35,142 bases of DNA from a virus (taxonomy: Duplodnaviria; Heunggongvirae; Uroviricota; Caudoviricetes), in the IMG/VR virus record IMGVR_UViG_2526164668_000014. One strand, written 5' to 3'. The stretch's first letter is position 1. Each line of letters starts with the position of its first letter. The notes below the pieces were generated by a model that was not told where the DNA came from, searched no databases, and saw nothing but the letters and a program-made list of their open reading frames with translations. The position numbers and the translations under genes were made by a program. Below are positions 2,814-14,312 of this stretch, one piece after another.

Positions 2814-3233
2814 GTGGCAAAAGTTTTTACACAAGAAGAGCGGGAAAAAATTAAAGGGCAGGTGGTGGAACTCGTACGCCAGAGTGGGCGCGAGACGTTA
2901 CGACAACTGGAAGCTAAAACTGGGGCAACAAGATATCTGATGAGCGTTCTGGCCAGAGAGCTGGTTGCCAGTGGCGATGTATACAGCTCTGGTTACGGGT
3001 TATTCCCGTCTGAACAGGCGCGTAAGGACTGGCAAAACGCCCGCAAAAAACTCTCGAGGGCAAAGGTGAAGAAACCTGCTGTGGTTGATCCGGACCTTAT
3101 CTGGTCATTACCTGACGGAGAAATACGTCGCTACGACAGTCGTCTAAACATAATCTGTCGCGAGTGCCGGAAGGCAAGGAGAAGCAGGCTATTGTTAACA
3201 TCAAGCTGTAATGTCCCCTTTGAACCATTCTAA
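2814..3233 (+). CDS. Hypothetical phage protein (GTG start); 3' end abuts the transposase insertion
   Basis: SD CAGGAGGA before GTG; 139 aa; stop lies 34 nt before the transposase ATG, so the C-terminus may be altered by the insertion. Confidence 0.5.
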   Translation: MAKVFTQEEREKIKGQVVELVRQSGRETLRQLEAKTGATRYLMSVLARELVASGDVYSSGYGLFPSEQARKDWQNARKKLSRAKVKKPAVVDPDLIWSLPDGEIRRYDSRLNIICRECRKARRSRLLLTSSCNVPFEPF

Positions 3234-4980
3234 AATGTCCCCAGACAATTCTCTGGGGGATTTTTCATGATCAAAGAGACTGTTACGATGAGTCATAAGG
3301 AACTCCACCGACTTCAGATTATTCAGGAGTCAATTAATCGACATATTACTCAGGAACAAGCTGCGGCACGCATTGGCATTTCTATTCGGCAGGTTAAACG
3401 TCTGGTGCAACGGTATAGAAATGAAGGGCCTTCTGGTCTGGTTTCCCACCGACGTGGAAAGCGTCCTAATAATTCCTTTTCTACTGAATTCAGAGCAACA
3501 GTAATTTCACTCCTCAAAGGCCGTTACGCTGATTTTGGACCTACGTTTGCGTGCGAAAAATTGCGCGAGATACACGGTTTATCTTTATCCGTTGAAACTC
3601 TCAGAAAGTGGATGATAGAAGAGGGGTTATGGCGTGAACGCCGTCGTAAAATTGCCCGTATATATCAACGCCGCATGCGACGACCATCTTACGGTGAACT
3701 GATCCAGATTGATGGCTCACCTCATGACTGGTTTGAAAATCGAGGCCCCAGATGTACACTGATCGTTTTCATTGATGATGCCACCAGTGCGTTGATGGCG
3801 TTGCGTTTTGTGCCTGCTGAAACAACCCGGGCTTACATGGAAACCCTCCGGGGTTACCTTAATGATCATGGCGTACCGCTCGCTCTCTACTCTGATAGAC
3901 ACAGTATATTCAGGGTAAATAACCCAGAGCGGGAAGGTGAGCTGACCCAGTTCACTCGTGCGATAAAGACACTGGGCATCGAGCCAATCCATGCCAACAG
4001 CCCGCAGGCAAAAGGGCGGGTAGAGCGCGCCAATCAGACACTACAGGACAGGCTGGTCAAAGAAATGTGGCTTCAGAATATCAGTGATATTGAAACAGCA
4101 AATGCATGGTTGCCGACCTTTATTGAAGCCTATAACAACCGGTTCGCTACGTCGCCTCGTACTACTGATAATGCTCATCTTGATGTGCACCATTCTGAAG
4201 AGGAACTGGGTTATATCTTCAGCCTACAGGCGAAGCGCGTTCTGTCTAAAAATCTCACTTTCCAGTACAAAAGCAGTGCGTTTCAGGTACGCAGTGAGGG
4301 CCGGGGATATCGACTTAGGCATTCGGTTGTTACTGTATGTGAGAACTTTGACGGTGAAATTAACGTTCTGTATGACGGGAAAGCGCTGGGCTGGGAAAAG
4401 TATGTTGATGGCCCGGAGCCTATACCACTGGATGATGAAAAGAGTGTCCATGAACGAGTGGATAATGCCCGTATTGATTTACGCTCAAAATACTATGTTA
4501 AATCTAAAGCTGACCATCCCTGGCCTACGCGCCGAACGCAAAGTCATCAGCAAGTTAAGCCCCCGAAGTTACCTAAAAAGAAGCCTGATCCCGATAAAAT
4601 AGATTGAAACCAAGATCGATTCGGTTGAGTGCATATCCATTCATAGGGTAGATTCTTAAGTCGCGTTTCTGGTGTTCATTTTCGGGTGGTTTGTTACTTG
4701 TTTTACCGGGGATATGCCAGAAACGCGCTGAGTCAGTCTGGGCGGTGCGCGTAATGAGGCGTTATGGTAAATAGCCTATGCTAATGTCCGCTAAGAGCAA
4801 GAAGCGGAAGTTGGCAGTTTTGTGGACTGTCCCCACAAAAGTGACTACAGAAATAGTTGCAATTCATAATTGATCATGGGTTGTCAGTTAAACTCGTGGC
4901 GATTTAAATAGACTAATTGGGAGTGCGTCCATTACTTATATCTTGTAATGTTAACTATCAGAAATGATACAAAGATAATA
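3200..4980 (+). mobile_element. Insertion sequence carrying the DDE transposase (termini not resolved)
   Basis: Transposase flanked by about 370 bp of non-coding DNA before the flxA terminator; imperfect 20-bp palindrome CCCCAGACAATTCTCTGGGG at 3239-3258. Confidence 0.35.
3267..4607 (+). CDS. DDE (rve integrase-core) transposase of a single-ORF IS (IS481/ISNCY-like)
   Basis: 446 aa; N-terminal HTH; candidate D-D-E residues in IQIDGSPHDW, YSDRHSIF and GRVERANQTLQDRL. Confidence 0.8.
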   Translation: MIKETVTMSHKELHRLQIIQESINRHITQEQAAARIGISIRQVKRLVQRYRNEGPSGLVSHRRGKRPNNSFSTEFRATVISLLKGRYADFGPTFACEKLREIHGLSLSVETLRKWMIEEGLWRERRRKIARIYQRRMRRPSYGELIQIDGSPHDWFENRGPRCTLIVFIDDATSALMALRFVPAETTRAYMETLRGYLNDHGVPLALYSDRHSIFRVNNPEREGELTQFTRAIKTLGIEPIHANSPQAKGRVERANQTLQDRLVKEMWLQNISDIETANAWLPTFIEAYNNRFATSPRTTDNAHLDVHHSEEELGYIFSLQAKRVLSKNLTFQYKSSAFQVRSEGRGYRLRHSVVTVCENFDGEINVLYDGKALGWEKYVDGPEPIPLDDEKSVHERVDNARIDLRSKYYVKSKADHPWPTRRTQSHQQVKPPKLPKKKPDPDKID

Positions 4981-8539: not shown

Positions 8540-9292
8540 ATGAACCTTGAAGCCTTACCAAAATATTACTCCCCAAAATCTCCAAAATTGAGCGATGACG
8601 CTCCAGCGACAGGCACCGGTTGTTTAACAATTACGGATGTAATGGCAGCGCAGGGGATGGTGCAGTCGAAAGCACCACTTGGGTTGGCCTTATTTCTGGC
8701 AAAAGTTGGTGTTCAGGACCCTCAGTTTGCGATTGAAGGCCTGCTAAATTACGCGATGGCACTGGATAACCCGACATTGAACAAATTGAGTGAAGAAATC
8801 CGGTTACAGATTATTCCTTACCTCGTGAGTTTTGCCTTTGCTGATTACTCCAGGTCTGCGGCAAGTAAGGCTCGCTGTGAGCATTGTTCAGGTACGGGAT
8901 TTTATAATGTATTGCGCGAAGTGGTGAAACACTACAGACGCGGGGAATCTGTAATCAAGGAAGAATGGGTGAAGGAACTATGTCAGCATTGCCATGGTAA
9001 GGGCGAAGCCAGCACAGCGTGCAGAGGGTGTAAGGGTAAAGGGATTGTTCTGGATGAAAAAAGAACCCGGTTTCATGGCGTACCGGTATATAAGATTTGT
9101 GGGCGTTGTAATGGAAACCGGTTTAGTCGTTTACCGACCACGCTGGCACGACGTCATGTCCAGAAGCTGGTACCAGACCTGACCGATTATCAGTGGTATA
9201 AGGGGTATGCGGACGTCATTGGTAAACTGGTAACAAAGTGCTGGCAGGAAGAAGCATACGCGGAAGCGCAATTGAGGAAGGTGACGAGATAA
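8540..9292 (+). CDS. quuQ: Late-gene antiterminator Q
   Basis: 250 aa MNLEALPKYYSPKSPKL...; Cys-rich zinc-binding region CEHCSGTG...CQHCHGKG...CRGCKGKG. Confidence 0.9.
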   Translation: MNLEALPKYYSPKSPKLSDDAPATGTGCLTITDVMAAQGMVQSKAPLGLALFLAKVGVQDPQFAIEGLLNYAMALDNPTLNKLSEEIRLQIIPYLVSFAFADYSRSAASKARCEHCSGTGFYNVLREVVKHYRRGESVIKEEWVKELCQHCHGKGEASTACRGCKGKGIVLDEKRTRFHGVPVYKICGRCNGNRFSRLPTTLARRHVQKLVPDLTDYQWYKGYADVIGKLVTKCWQEEAYAEAQLRKVTR

Positions 9293-9323
9293 ATGATTTT
9301 TGCTGAAGATGGCGACATGATGT

Positions 9324-9352
9324 TTGCATTCTTCAAAAAATATGGATAAAAT
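9324..9352 (+). promoter_or_regulatory. Candidate late promoter PR-prime
   Basis: TTGCAT-N17-TAAAAT immediately downstream of Q. Confidence 0.55.
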
Positions 9353-9398
9353 TTTTTCAACGATGGGCTTTGTATACCCGACGTTAAGAAAAAGTAGA

Positions 9399-9421
9399 AA
9401 ACCCGCTGATGAGCGGGTTTT
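9399..9421 (+). terminator. Candidate tR-prime terminator (Q antitermination target)
   Basis: CCCGC-TGATGA-GCGGG hairpin plus TTTTGTGCTTT, about 45 nt downstream of the candidate PR-prime -10. Confidence 0.6.
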
Positions 9422-9703
9422 GTGCTTTAAATGGGGCAATGGTAATGTCCCGGGACTCATGTCTGTTAACTTATTATTTAGCTGGTGACTTGGTTATTTG
9501 CCTGATGTTTAAAATGTTTTCTTCCAGTACAATGTCCCTAAACACAATGAGTCTGCTTATTATATTATTAGCAGAGCTATTACGGCCAAAGTACAGCATA
9601 AGCTTTTAAAGCCAATCAACCAGTCATCAAGACAGACGGGGTTATTCATAAAAACTCTCCATGTGTGATCCGATGGGGCCTGAAATTAAAGCTTTAATAT
9701 AGC

Positions 9704-9916
9704 TCATGAAAGGTAAACATTGGCAGCTGAAGGGCCACGCAGACCATTTATCCGGCAAAATTCCACGCGTAATCCGGTGGTAATTTCTTCTGCATCGCGG
9801 AGATTGAGCGCTGAAACATGAAGCTGGACATCGATACGACCATCGGATGGGGTGATAAGACCCTTGCCGCTTTTGCCGTCAAAGGTTTTGACAATTCCTG
9901 TCATTTTACGGGACAA
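9704..9916 (-). CDS. cspF: Cold-shock protein homologue CspF
   Basis: 70 aa [26 protein letters not shown]...; CspA-family OB fold. Confidence 0.9.
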
Positions 9917-10215
9917 AAAATTCCTTAATACTGATAACTTGGCGCACTATACACACGTTCCTGAAGAAAGCTATAGTTTTTTGATGGGGTTGAAGATGGC
10001 TGGATGTCTAAAATAAACATTGCTTCATATGTTCAACTATGCGTTAATGATTGCGTCGGTTTGAAGAACAGACGATATACGAAGTAGTTTACTAAAGCAG
10101 TTCTCATTTCAGGTGTTATTCACTTATTCCTTCTTTGAGTCTCTCCAATTAAGTACGAAGTCGTTTCTGTTATGCAAACCATTTATGCCGAAAGGCTCAA
10201 GTTAAGGAATGTAGA

Positions 10216-10431
10216 ATGTCAAATAAAATGACTGGTTTAGTAAAATGGTTTAACGCTGATAAAGGTTTCGGCTTTATTTCTCCTGTTGATGGTAGTAAAG
10301 ATGTGTTTGTGCATTTTTCTGCGATTCAGAATGATAATTATCGAACCTTATTTGAAGGTCAAAAGGTTACCTTCTCTATAGAGAGTGGTGCTAAAGGTCC
10401 TGCAGCAGCAAATGTCATCATTACTGATTAA
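10216..10431 (+). CDS. cspB: Cold-shock protein CspB
   Basis: 71 aa [37 protein letters not shown]...; long upstream leader typical of cold-shock genes. Confidence 0.9.
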
Positions 10432-10713
10432 AATTCATCGCTCGTCTGTATACGATAACGAAGAAGGCTGATGCCTGAGTAGAGATACGGACAGAGTAGT
10501 GAATATTGGATCTCTTTAATAAAAAGTAAGGAGGTCCAATACATGAAACAATGGCTAGCATATTTGGCAAAATCTTAATCAGGAAAAGTATGCTAACCAT
10601 TGTGGTGAAGTGCAGGTTTGCTGCATGAATAGTTTTACAGCAGAAGCTAACTGCTGGCATGGCAAAACAAAGTGCGTAAGTGGATGACTCCCACAAAAAG
10701 CACCACAATCTCA

Positions 10714-10737
10714 AACCCGCTCAGGCGGGTTTTTTAT
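10714..10737 (+). terminator. Rho-independent terminator after cspB
   Basis: ACCCGC-TCAG-GCGGGT hairpin followed by TTTTTTATT. Confidence 0.55.
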
Positions 10738-10794
10738 TATCTGCTTTAAATATATTATTAAAATATAAAAAATACTTGTTACTAATAAAATCAA

Positions 10795-10965
10795 TCAGGC
10801 TACAGCTTTAAGATTTGTCTGGAATACTTTGTTGCAATGAGGGCAGATCAAAAGGGCACCTTTTTGTACTCTTGAAAAACTGTGTTCTGACTCTTGGGTG
10901 CAGTTTGGGCAGGAACATTTAACGAGATAATTACGGCGTGATTTTGAGTTTTTACGTTCTGACAT
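10795..10965 (-). CDS. YdfK/YnaE-like small zinc-ribbon protein
   Basis: MSERKNSKSRRNYLVKCSCPNCTQ...CPHCNKVF with two CxxC pairs; SD AGGAAA before this ATG; an upstream ATG at 11016 would give 73 aa. Confidence 0.65.
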   Translation of the reverse strand: MSERKNSKSRRNYLVKCSCPNCTQESEHSFSRVQKGALLICPHCNKVFQTNLKAVA

Positions 10966-11184
10966 AGGCTTTTCCTGTATAAATGGCCGTATACAGTACA
11001 CTAAATATGAAAACATTTCTCGTATTATTATTTTATATATGACTTTCTTTCAAAATAATTACCCACATTTTTAATGTGTATGTTTTTTTAGCGCCGTTGA
11101 GAACAACGTGTGCTGTCAAAACTACCCCGTAGACTCCGATCTTTTCAAACATATTGCACCATCCGTGTACATCGGGGTGAGGAT

Positions 11185-11400
11185 ATGAAATCAATGGATA
11201 AGTTAACAACAGGTGTTGCCTATGGCACATCGGCGGGTAATGCTGGTTTCTGGGCATTGCAGTTACTCGATAAAGTAACTCCGTCACAGTGGGCTGCAAT
11301 CGGTGTGCTGGGTAGCCTGGTTTTTGGCCTGCTGACGTATCTGACAAATCTTTATTTCAAGATTAAAGAAGACAGGCGTAAGGCTGCGAGAGGAGAGTAA
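11185..11400 (+). CDS. essQ: Class II holin (phage-21 S-type pinholin)
   Basis: 71 aa [28 protein letters not shown]...; Met1-Lys-Ser-Met4 dual-start motif; two transmembrane segments. Confidence 0.9.
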
Positions 11401-12740: not shown

Positions 12741-13101
12741 GGTAATATTAAATCGGAACATTTACATCGCGGAATGTAAAATTTGAATAAAAAGGACTCT
12801 TCCATGAGCCAAAATTCCTGAAATCTTAAGGGTAAGATAAAAGGTCTTAATCAGAATGACACGTTTTATTAATAAATAAAGCTATTCTTTCATTGCTGTG
12901 TTTTTCTTTACAAAAGTAATCCTTGCTATGGGTGGTTAATCATGCGTTAATGGTGTTCTGGTTTGTTACAAATTTATCTGAAGCAGTCATTGTTATAATT
13001 TTATTATTTGTACCTCTTGAGATTTCCTTGTTGGTTTTTCTCTCTGATATTTTTTTCGGACCATTCTGCCCAAGGGCTAATTTCTTCAAAAGGTAATAAT
13101 T

Positions 13102-13314
13102 ATGTCTAACAAAATGACTGGTTTAGTGAAATGGTTTAACCCTGAAAAAGGTTTTGGTTTCATCACGCCGAAAGATGGCAGCAAAGATGTGTTTGTCCAT
13201 TTCTCAGCAATTCAGAGCAACGATTTCAAAACATTAACTGAGAATCAGGAAGTTGAATTTGGTATTGAGAACGGACCTAAAGGTCCTGCCGCTGTTCATG
13301 TAGTGGCGCTTTGA
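13102..13314 (+). CDS. cspI: Cold-shock protein CspI
   Basis: 70 aa [37 protein letters not shown]... Confidence 0.9.
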
Positions 13315-13402
13315 GGTAGACAATATTACAAACCATATTCACTTTAGATGCCCGTGTTGTCATGGTTCCCAGTATAGAACATCATCTTTTGATGTTTCTG
13401 AC

Positions 13403-13513
13403 ATGAATCCTTTCGGGGCAAAATGTATCTTTTGTAAATCAATGATGATTACATTTGATAATATTTCACAATACTTAAATGCCAGCCGTCTGTCGTTGGA
13501 TTTAAAAAAGTGA
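13403..13513 (+). CDS. YnfN-like small zinc-ribbon ORF (start uncertain)
   Basis: Frame open from 13304 encodes ...RCPCCHGSQYRTSSFDVSDMNPFGAKCIFCKS...; first in-frame ATG is at 13403, after the first Cys pair. Confidence 0.35.
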   Translation: MNPFGAKCIFCKSMMITFDNISQYLNASRLSLDLKK

Positions 13514-13521
13514 AAATGAAG

Positions 13522-13541
13522 GCTCCTTCGGGAGCTTTTTT
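13522..13541 (+). terminator. Rho-independent terminator
   Basis: GCTCC-TTCG-GGAGC hairpin followed by TTTTTTG. Confidence 0.5.
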
Positions 13542-13585
13542 GCTTGGTGTCTATTCGATGGATACTCACATACTACGGTAACATC

Positions 13586-13816
13586 ATGAAAAAAATCATA
13601 GTTTTTTTTAACTCTGAACCAGCAGTGGTAGTGCCAGCGATGACTGGAGTTAACACCATCATGCGTGAATATCCAAATGGCGAAAAAACACACCTTACTG
13701 TAATGGCCGCAGGGTTTCCATCTCTGACCGGAGATCATAAAGTCATTTATGTAGCCGCGGATCGACATGTTACTTCAGAAGAAATTCTGGAAGCAGCAAT
13801 AAGGCTCTTGAGTTGA
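13586..13816 (+). CDS. Hypothetical small protein (76 aa)
   Basis: ORF MKKIIVFFNSEPAVVVPAMTG... downstream of the terminator; no strong SD. Confidence 0.4.
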   Translation: MKKIIVFFNSEPAVVVPAMTGVNTIMREYPNGEKTHLTVMAAGFPSLTGDHKVIYVAADRHVTSEEILEAAIRLLS

Positions 13817-13987
13817 TTTGATGCTATTGCATTGATAATTCAGGAAAATTCTCTTTGTCTGTTTGTGTAAAATTTAGACTATCGTATGTTGATTATTGCG
13901 ATGTTTCATCTTATCTTTTACACGTTTGCACCATATAATCGACTTACTGTGTAACTGGAAAGTCATAACAGACTAAAAGAGGAAATG

Positions 13988-14161
13988 ATGAATATTGAAG
14001 ACTTAAAAACAAAAGCAGAAGCAGATATTTCTGAATATATAACAAAAAAAATTATTGAACTTAAGAAAAAGACCGGGAAAGAAGTTACCAGTATTCAGTT
14101 TACCGCACGGGAAAAAATGACGGGTCTTGAAAGCTATGATGTCAAGATTAATTTAATCTGA
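13988..14161 (+). CDS. gnsB: GnsB (GnsA/GnsB family small protein)
   Basis: Hand-translated 57-aa ORF MNIEDLKTKAEADISEYITKKIIELKKKTGKEVTSIQFTAREKMTGLESYDVKINLI, below the ORF-track cutoff; an extra in-frame ATG at 13985. Confidence 0.8.
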   Translation: MNIEDLKTKAEADISEYITKKIIELKKKTGKEVTSIQFTAREKMTGLESYDVKINLI

Positions 14162-14312
14162 TGTATTCAATAATAAAATTTATCCATAAACCTCGTTTTT
14201 ACGGGGTTTTGTTATATTTGAATGGTTCCGAATATCTAAATCACAATTGTTGATGGTTTTTATTAAACCAATGCAGTCCGGCTCAGGAGTGAGAGAAGCC
14301 GGACGTTATGGT

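Follow-up and report, generated by a model that had tools for sequence, protein, structure and literature searches.

Cold-shock genes in the path of the late transcript of a Qin-family prophage as probable passenger cargo between Q and the lysis genes

Between the terminator tR', which follows the late antiterminator gene Q, and the holin gene, which is the first of the lysis genes, the stretch of viral DNA considered here (IMG/VR record IMGVR_UViG_2526164668_000014; 35,142 nucleotides (nt), referred to at its full length as the window) carries a cluster of cold-shock (csp) genes. It is almost certain that the late transcript reads across this cluster, and the locus raises the question of whether such a layout couples late-gene expression to cold-shock gene output, in one direction or the other, as an earlier note on this DNA had suggested, or whether the csp genes are simply carried along. 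We favor the second answer and give it a probability of roughly 80%: ynfS-cspF, cspB and ynfU would be self-contained passenger genes (morons) that occupy a hypervariable slot between Q and the lysis genes and are read across by Q-modified RNA polymerase upon induction. What the analysis shows directly are the identities of the genes, a promoter and a pause sequence that resemble those of lambda, the terminators, the points at which the modules break on both sides of the cluster and the spread of the arrangement among genomes.

By nucleotide identity and gene order, the window is a Qin-family lambdoid prophage of Escherichia coli. The ~1.9 kb that separate the stop codon of Q from the start of the holin gene (9293–11184) match the corresponding DNA of E. 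coli strain C7 at 100% identity and that of K-12 Qin at 99.4%, and at least 80% of this interval was found in 1617 of 5426 complete E. coli genomes. The annotations of K-12 and C7 give the same order, namely ydfU, ydfT (Q), a gene for a hypothetical protein of 29 residues, cspF, cspB, ynfU, the holin gene, ydfR, rrrQ, rzpQ, cspI, ynfQ, ynfR, ynfN and gnsB; what is seen here is the cold-shock cargo cluster annotated in Qin, which is already known. Beyond the csp and lysis genes, the window has a same-strand and complete-looking set of terminase, portal, head and tail open reading frames, which K-12 Qin does not have. Gene order and orientation are identical in all 80 of the best IMG/VR loci; because these are ~99% identical to each other, they represent one widespread module and not independent evidence. 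(ynfS was marked in this survey by window positions 9570–9659, 10 nt off its coding sequence at 9560–9649, which marks the same locus and orientation.) The full order from Q through ynfS, cspF, cspB and ynfU to the holin gene is also found in the sequenced phage genomes PhiR42_1, 2H10, HannyBb, PhiR63_1 and Tritos, the last of which is a prophage of strain LF82 that was isolated as a plaque-forming phage (PMC9928086).

By its matches to Pfam and Protein Data Bank (PDB) entries, the Q protein of the window is a member of the Q-lambda family; it matches PDB entry 7UBM (Q-lambda) at E = 4.6e-36, in two stretches on either side of an insertion of ~40 residues, and entries 4MO1 and 7UBJ match as well. 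Directly downstream of Q lies a lambda-like pR' with the conserved pause element CAACGATGGG, and in our alignment the AACGAT/GGG stretch is invariant across lambda, SfV, a phage carrying the Shiga toxin type Stx2k, 2H10 and the window. In the lambda pR', the -10-like AACGAT element causes a sigma-70-dependent pause, and this is where Q loads. The promoter spacer, which in lambda pR' is the site of the Q-binding element, shares scattered invariant positions with its lambda counterpart (TT.TT.AA.AAA..TGG). A sigma-70 promoter followed by a -10-like pause element, as expected of a Q-lambda-type module, is present on the level of sequence. The 27-nt promoter and pause motif occurs a single time in the 35-kb window, where a search for a second qut/pR' copy closer to the holin gene found none, and pR' is followed on the same strand by all of the holin, endolysin, spanin, terminase, head and tail genes. 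From the family of Q, the uniqueness of pR' and the position of the late genes we infer that the late transcript would cross the cluster much as the earlier note had pictured it, antisense to cspF, sense to cspB and past the terminator of the latter; in this part the note holds up, and the coupling it built upon this path is weighed below.

The module ends in the tR' hairpin, which folds at -23.9 kcal/mol (z = -8.4) on the plus strand and at -15.1 kcal/mol (z = -6.3) on the minus strand, and whose homologue in phage SfV is annotated as a rho-independent terminator, in agreement with the tR' named in the earlier note. It thus has the features of an intrinsic terminator downstream of pR', with a plus-strand U-tract of only 4 T, and it probably ends transcription from either side, that of the short pR' RNA (~65–70 nt) on the plus strand and that of cspF-ynfS on the minus strand. 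Alleles of the hairpin were compared in 105 IMG/VR contigs that contain this pR' pause motif, 45 of them with cspF downstream and 60 with other cargo. The csp-linked alleles carry the 5' flank GTAGAAAA (A4) and 4–5 T past the stem; they are symmetric and look bidirectional, whereas those in front of other cargo mostly carry the flank TTTAAGAA (A2) and 6–7 T past the stem and look one-directional. The symmetric csp-linked allele could be an adaptation to convergent cspF transcription, or could merely reflect common descent. About 27 nt past the hairpin (9448/9449), the window is without 10 base pairs (bp), TTGAATCTCA, that are present in K-12 and in phage 2H10.

Where homology to other phages breaks off and resumes defines the extent of the cargo. 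The module composed of Q, pR' and tR' (8540–9421) recurs at ~90% identity in SfV, mEp460, Ayreon, Salmonella phages and many Stx2c and Stx2k phages, and with the phages that have other cargo the homology extends as far as 9421, where the hairpin has its last base; it picks up again ~4–12 nt ahead of the holin start codon. The cargo can therefore be placed at about 9422–11172 (~1.76 kb). The same break is seen within the species: a query across the junction matched 2461 of the 5426 E. coli genomes, 1365 of which have the contiguous Q-to-cspF junction, and among the matches listed the homology of the other genomes ends at the tR' hairpin. In SfV the cargo downstream of the hairpin consists of orf47, a DNA methylase gene and a further terminator before the holin gene, and in phiSTEC1575-Stx2k it consists of several open reading frames, three tRNAs, the stx2k A and B genes and an antisense iraM-like gene, followed by a holin of the same class. 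Because the same module precedes stx2, methylase or other cargo and the homology breaks at the hairpin, we regard the csp cluster as cargo in the usual slot between Q and holin, and since this slot holds unrelated cargo in sister phages, the position of the cluster is generic. In HannyBb (positions 1196–1268 and 2890–3076 of the extracted locus), Q gives way to a pR'-like stretch that has diverged; ~1.7 kb of additional DNA then separates this from the leftover 73 nt of a Q 3' end, which match the 3' end of the Q upstream at 77% identity, and immediately ahead of the csp cluster stands a second pR'-tR', of the window type. The csp cargo would thus seem to move together with a pR'-tR' copy of its own. 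Our literature search found no discussion of csp genes as cargo between Q and holin, and no literature on the Stx2k phage.

The cargo also has the properties by which morons are recognised. Expression in the lysogen is documented for the near-identical Tritos copy, where cspB stands 59-fold and cspI 93-fold above the prophage background and both are listed as autonomously transcribed morons (PMC9928086); the corresponding promoters in the window are predicted. Terminators of their own are found both for cspB (10713–10732) and for cspF-ynfS, in the minus-strand face of the tR' hairpin. Presence and absence, and with it dispensability, are seen in the sister phages that have the same Q module without csp cargo, the cargo being present in 45 of the 105 sampled contigs. 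Promoters may well have come along with the genes: the cspF-cspB unit is 73.6% identical over 716 nt, shared intergenic region included, to the chromosomal cspH-cspG pair, and as an en-bloc paralogue of that pair would therefore have arrived with its own regulatory DNA.

Table 1. Coordinates of the late control module, the cargo and the neighbouring genes in the window
Feature	Position	Strand	Evidence and remarks
Q (ydfT/quuQ), late antiterminator, 250 residues	8540–9292	+	Pfam PF03589 E = 4.2e-54; DnaJ_CXXCXGXG E = 1.5e-08; PHROG 127; ydfT in K-12 annotation
pR'-like late promoter	9323–9352	+	-35 TTTGCA, 18-nt spacer, -10 TAAAAT; 9/12 matches in promoter scan; aligned with lambda, SfV, Stx2k phage and 2H10
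Initial transcribed region TCAACGATGGG	9357–9367	+	Includes -10-like AACGAT element; invariant in 5 aligned phages including lambda
tR' hairpin AAAACCCGCT-GATG-AGCGGGTTTT	9398–9421	both	Flagged on minus strand by terminator scan; symmetric (A4/U4)
ynfS, small hydrophobic protein of 29 residues	9560–9649	-	Downstream of cspF; translation equals published YnfS sequence; hypothetical protein in K-12 annotation
cspF, cold-shock-domain protein	9704–9916	-	Pfam CSD E = 5.6e-22; NCBIfam CspF 160.4 bits
Divergent promoter region of cspF and cspB (promoters predicted)	9917–10054	both	Remainder of the 299-bp spacer, ahead of the Rfam leader match
cspB 5' leader, cspA-type thermoregulator, 161 nt	10055–10215	+	Rfam RF01766 158.8 bits (gathering score 78), model 1–428 over 10055–10447
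cspB, cold-inducible CspA-family protein	10216–10431	+	Pfam CSD E = 9.8e-32; NCBIfam CspA subfamily 144.3 bits; annotated cspB
cspB trailer, highly structured	10432–10712	+	~300 nt from cspB stop codon to terminator
cspB intrinsic terminator	10713–10732	+	Terminator scan; 8-bp stem, then six T; -14.2 kcal/mol, z = -4.5
ynfU, zinc-knuckle protein (CPNC...CPHC) of 56 residues	10795–10965 (open frame to 11016)	-	Pfam YnfU PF23499 E = 6.4e-31; NCBIfam NF038384 E = 1.1e-22; ynfU in K-12 annotation
Overlapping divergent promoter-like sites	11024–11059	both	Minus: TTGAAA-18-AATAAT (11053–11024), faces ynfU, 10/12; plus: TTTATA-16-AATAAT (11032–11059), faces holin, 9/12
Holin gene essQ, P21 S type, first lysis gene	11185–11400	+	Pfam Phage_holin_2_1 E = 4.4e-34; annotated in K-12 and C7
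cspI with its own cspA-type thermoregulator leader	12957–13341	+	Directly after spanin gene; Rfam RF01766 114.2 bits; Pfam CSD E = 1.6e-31 for 13102–13314

Compared with the lambda late module, the likeness consists of a Q of the same family, a promoter right after Q, an aligned spacer and initial transcribed region TCAACGATGGG, an intrinsic terminator and then the holin gene. The window differs in the insertion of ~40 residues in Q, with an extra CxxCxGxG zinc motif, and in its terminator, which is symmetric and lies ~40–65 nt from the predicted start. In lambda, the terminator that ends the 6S RNA is reached at 194 nt. The interval between Q and the holin gene holds ~1.76 kb of cargo with four genes in the window, compared to ~680 bp with orf-64 only between Q and S in lambda. 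With the Stx- and SfV-type cargo the csp cluster shares the ~90% identical module, the break at the hairpin and the position ahead of the holin gene, and an extra terminator and an antisense gene have their counterparts in SfV and in the iraM-like gene of the Stx2k phage, respectively; unlike those, it consists of cold-shock and small-protein genes, three of its four genes (ynfS, cspF and ynfU) are antisense to the late transcript, and cspB has a thermoregulated leader of its own. The lambda morons bor and lom likewise have their own promoters, are expressed in the lysogen and are embedded in the late transcription unit; in contrast to those two, which sit among the tail genes or after the lysis genes, the csp morons sit in the slot between Q and holin and are under thermal, post-transcriptional regulation.

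We propose the following working of the locus. In the lysogen, pR' would fire constitutively and the polymerase would halt at 9398–9421, giving an RNA of ~65–70 nt, while the cargo genes would run off their own promoters: cspB with its thermoregulated 161-nt leader and its own strong terminator, cspF-ynfS leftward, convergent on pR' and ending at the same symmetric hairpin, which would be active both ways, and ynfU leftward as well, from a promoter beside the holin gene. Upon induction, Q would load at the pR' pause site, and the resulting terminator-resistant polymerase would pass tR', the Rho-dependent attenuation in the cspB leader and the cspB terminator. The late transcript would then contain antisense ynfS and cspF, sense cspB and antisense ynfU, and would run into the holin gene and on through cspI to the terminase and structural genes. 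Any effect on the cargo would be a one-way by-product: sense RNA of cspB would increase, and expression of cspF, ynfS and ynfU would be interfered with. Such a crossing would be ordinary, since the stx genes in the same slot are likewise co-transcribed with the late genes. Counting cspI, the path of the late transcript crosses three csp genes, two of them (cspB and cspI) in the sense direction.

Several points weigh against this picture. All transcriptional events in it are inferred by analogy with lambda. The activity of Q at this pR' is an assumption in view of the ~40-residue insertion, and the literature search found no paper testing the activity of QuuQ/YdfT. The plus-strand U-tract of tR' is short, 4 T compared to 6–7 T in the alleles with other cargo. 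The promoter scan as a whole performed at chance, with 12 sites found and 12.2 expected. Finally, genomic SELEX (systematic evolution of ligands by exponential enrichment) found RNA polymerase, as RpoD holoenzyme, bound in the spacer between cspB and essQ, and the binding was read as an essQ promoter made of the hexamers TTTATA-16-AATAAT (PMC3946193). This last point leads to a different layout, in which the lysis cassette would have its own sigma-70 promoter at 11032–11059 and late expression would have no need to cross the csp genes. Our promoter scan found the site, and the hexamer pair is exactly the one that the SELEX study assigned to essQ; peaks of minor sigma factors were reported in the same spacer, too (PMC5493296). 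However, with a match of 9/12 the site is no better than chance sites, and it overlaps a better minus-strand site (10/12) that faces ynfU, a gene that was unannotated in 2014 although its protein is well expressed. SELEX binding gives no direction, and because the better site faces a gene that was unannotated at the time of the study, the binding peak may belong to ynfU. The spacer between cspB and essQ is, moreover, marked as H-NS bound in the same work (PMC3946193), and in sister phages that share the Q module, the DNA upstream of the holin gene is unrelated. These points together with what is established for lambda make us consider an insulated lysis cassette very improbable. In the lambda paradigm, a late operon located behind terminators requires antitermination, and the late operon here, of 20 kb, would be so located.

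The remaining alternatives accept the crossing and assign a function to it. Perhaps the layout was selected so that cold-shock output and late or lysis expression control each other. In the cold, a highly active cspB promoter together with antitermination by Csp proteins might read through the terminator at 10713–10732 into the holin, endolysin and spanin genes without Q, or transcription of cspF-ynfS converging on pR' might modulate Q loading. There is only one good plus-strand terminator between cspB and the holin gene, CspA-family proteins have been described as transcription antiterminators (Bae et al., 2000, as cited in PMC9765468), and cspB and cspI flank the lysis cassette, each with a thermoregulator leader. 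The one terminator, however, has a strong stem followed by six U, ynfU is transcribed head-on between it and the holin gene, and in the single terminator reporter examined, overproduction of CspB and CspF made no significant difference (PMC9765468). In long-term stationary phase of K-12, cspB, cspF, cspI and ynfN rise and the intervening lysis genes are not listed (PMC7406224), which counts as weak negative evidence, and our literature search found nothing on cold-shock induction of essQ, rrrQ or ydfR. The symmetric csp-linked tR' allele would fit a shielding of pR' from convergent transcription, but the difference between the alleles may equally be one of common descent; cspF decays in a viable phage, and the slot is generic, with unrelated cargo in sister phages. 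Considering all this, we judge mutual control to be improbable. We give the same low weight to its more specific form, in which the bracketing by cspB and cspI could make lysis and late expression temperature-sensitive, through read-through in the cold without Q or through a need for CspB and CspI, made from the Q-driven transcript, in late expression in the cold, the symmetry of tR' then having been selected to shield the paused complex at pR'. Somewhat less unlikely, but still doubtful, is the idea that the cargo helps the phage: CspB and CspI made from the Q-driven transcript might serve as RNA chaperones, so that long late mRNAs stay translatable and terminator-free in the cold, widening the temperature range of lytic growth. 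Both genes point in the direction of the late transcript, cspB together with its leader is conserved near-perfectly among phages while the neighbouring DNA varies, and cold-shock-domain proteins recur in phages (PHROG 729). Against this, there are sister phages without these csp genes, and expression in the lysogen along with an effect on host survival in long-term stationary phase fits a benefit for the host (PMC9928086; PMC7406224). Passenger genes crossed by the late transcript thus remain the reading that we prefer. The coupling suggested by the earlier note, in either direction, finds no support in a cluster that has its own promoters and terminators, whose cspB and cspI are expressed autonomously in the Tritos lysogen and whose cspF is a pseudogene there.

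As to the individual cargo genes, the minus-strand cspF and plus-strand cspB that had been noted between tR' and the holin gene are confirmed by their Pfam CSD matches, and so is the strong intrinsic terminator past cspB. All three products, CspF, CspB and CspI, are cold-shock-domain proteins of ~70 residues, as expected of the CspA family, and PHROG 729 shows such proteins to be a recognised phage-borne family; a thermoregulator leader is found for cspB and cspI and not for cspF, for which a search for RF01766 on the minus strand gave no match even at E ≤ 1. Other permissive Rfam matches in 9293–11184 (Trp_leader 21.7, P9 19.3, isrK 18.3 and Pseudomonadales-1 16.2 bits) were set aside as chance, being far under their gathering scores and located on terminator hairpins. 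The cspB leader is subject to Rho-dependent attenuation at 37 °C (review PMC12360218). The leaders of 300 bp mentioned before turn out to be something else, namely the 299-bp divergent spacer, which includes the cspB leader, and a trailer of similar length behind cspB. Two genes had been overlooked altogether, ynfS and the third csp gene, cspI. YnfS is a small protein detected experimentally in K-12 (PMC6001520) and has no match in NCBIfam or PHROGs.

In Tritos (positions 3900–4130 of the extracted phage locus), a deletion of ~245 bp takes ynfS and the 3' end of cspF, and the remainder of cspF is frameshifted and heavily substituted, while cspB with its leader scarcely differs from the copy in the window. 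Since cspF is a pseudogene in this plaque-forming phage, it is dispensable to a working phage. In the window itself, the run of A beside the cspF start codon (9917–9922, a run of T on the coding strand) is one A shorter than in K-12 and 2H10, which reduces the spacing between Shine-Dalgarno sequence and start codon.

The cspB trailer is structured well beyond chance, with a minimum free energy of -105.2 kcal/mol for 10432–10740 compared to -71.2 kcal/mol for shuffled sequences (z = -6.3). It always accompanies cspB in phages, where all copies are 95–100% identical, and part of it (10597–10739) is also found after a csp gene in the phage-plasmid Cyrano. It holds an open reading frame of 11 codons (10543–10578, MKQWLAYLAKS) whose perfect Shine-Dalgarno sequence, TAAGGAGGT (10527–10535), is buried in a hairpin; as a coding gene this frame was set aside, since 3 of the 11 codons alter the amino acid in 2H10.

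The zinc-ribbon gene that had been taken as ydfK-like is ynfU and lies on the minus strand. Its translation has two CPxC zinc knuckles and matches both family models of YnfU. A BLASTP comparison with K-12 YdfK, encoded at the far end of Qin, found nothing to align at E ≤ 100, and YdfK lacks cysteines altogether; the identification as ydfK was rejected. YnfU was detected in K-12, where its expression ranks among the highest for the new small proteins (bioRxiv 10.1101/511675). Searches gave no match to PHROGs for YnfU, nor to NCBIfam for the holin and YdfR. The terminator of ynfU amounts to a weak minus-strand U-tract beyond the hairpin at 10713–10732. The insertion in Q, at about residues 121–159 in comparison with lambda Q, adds a DnaJ-like CxxCxGxG zinc motif or zinc finger.

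The relation to the chromosomal islet cspH-cspG-ymcF-ymcE-gnsA goes further than the divergent csp pair, as the genes downstream of cspG match those that follow cspI in the prophage. The islet differs in lying outside a recognisable prophage and in that one csp gene takes the place held in the prophage by cspB, ynfU, the lysis cassette and cspI together. The extracted chromosomal stretch (1501–2775) is colinear with cspF-cspB (window 9708–10415) and then with the segment from cspI and ynfQ to gnsB (13090–14162). The 5' leader of cspG is 77.6% identical to that of cspB and 60.2% to that of cspI, whereas its 3' flank is 70.5% identical to that of cspI and 57.0% to that of cspB; within the coding sequence, the informative sites switch from cspB-like (10 to 5) to cspI-like (12 to 32; Fisher p = 0.012). 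cspG looks chimeric, with a cspB-like 5' part and a cspI-like 3' part. As cspB and cspI are direct repeats that bracket ynfU and the lysis cassette, these comparisons suggest that the islet is the product of a recombination between cspB and cspI by which an ancestral element resembling Qin lost ynfU together with its lysis cassette, although the reverse direction is possible. Our literature search found no paper on a prophage origin of the cspG-gnsA islet.

What is gained for this locus is the identity of ynfU in place of ydfK, the presence of ynfS and a revised leader and trailer structure around cspB, along with two small leads, the symmetric csp-linked tR' allele and the possible prophage origin of the cspG islet. 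Were the coupling true, it would mean a temperature input into prophage lysis, in a module that ~30% of the complete E. coli genomes carry. On present evidence, the csp cluster would rather be a textbook case of passenger genes lodged between Q and the lysis cassette, in the slot where related phages hold the Shiga toxin genes, behind the same module of Q, pR' and tR'.

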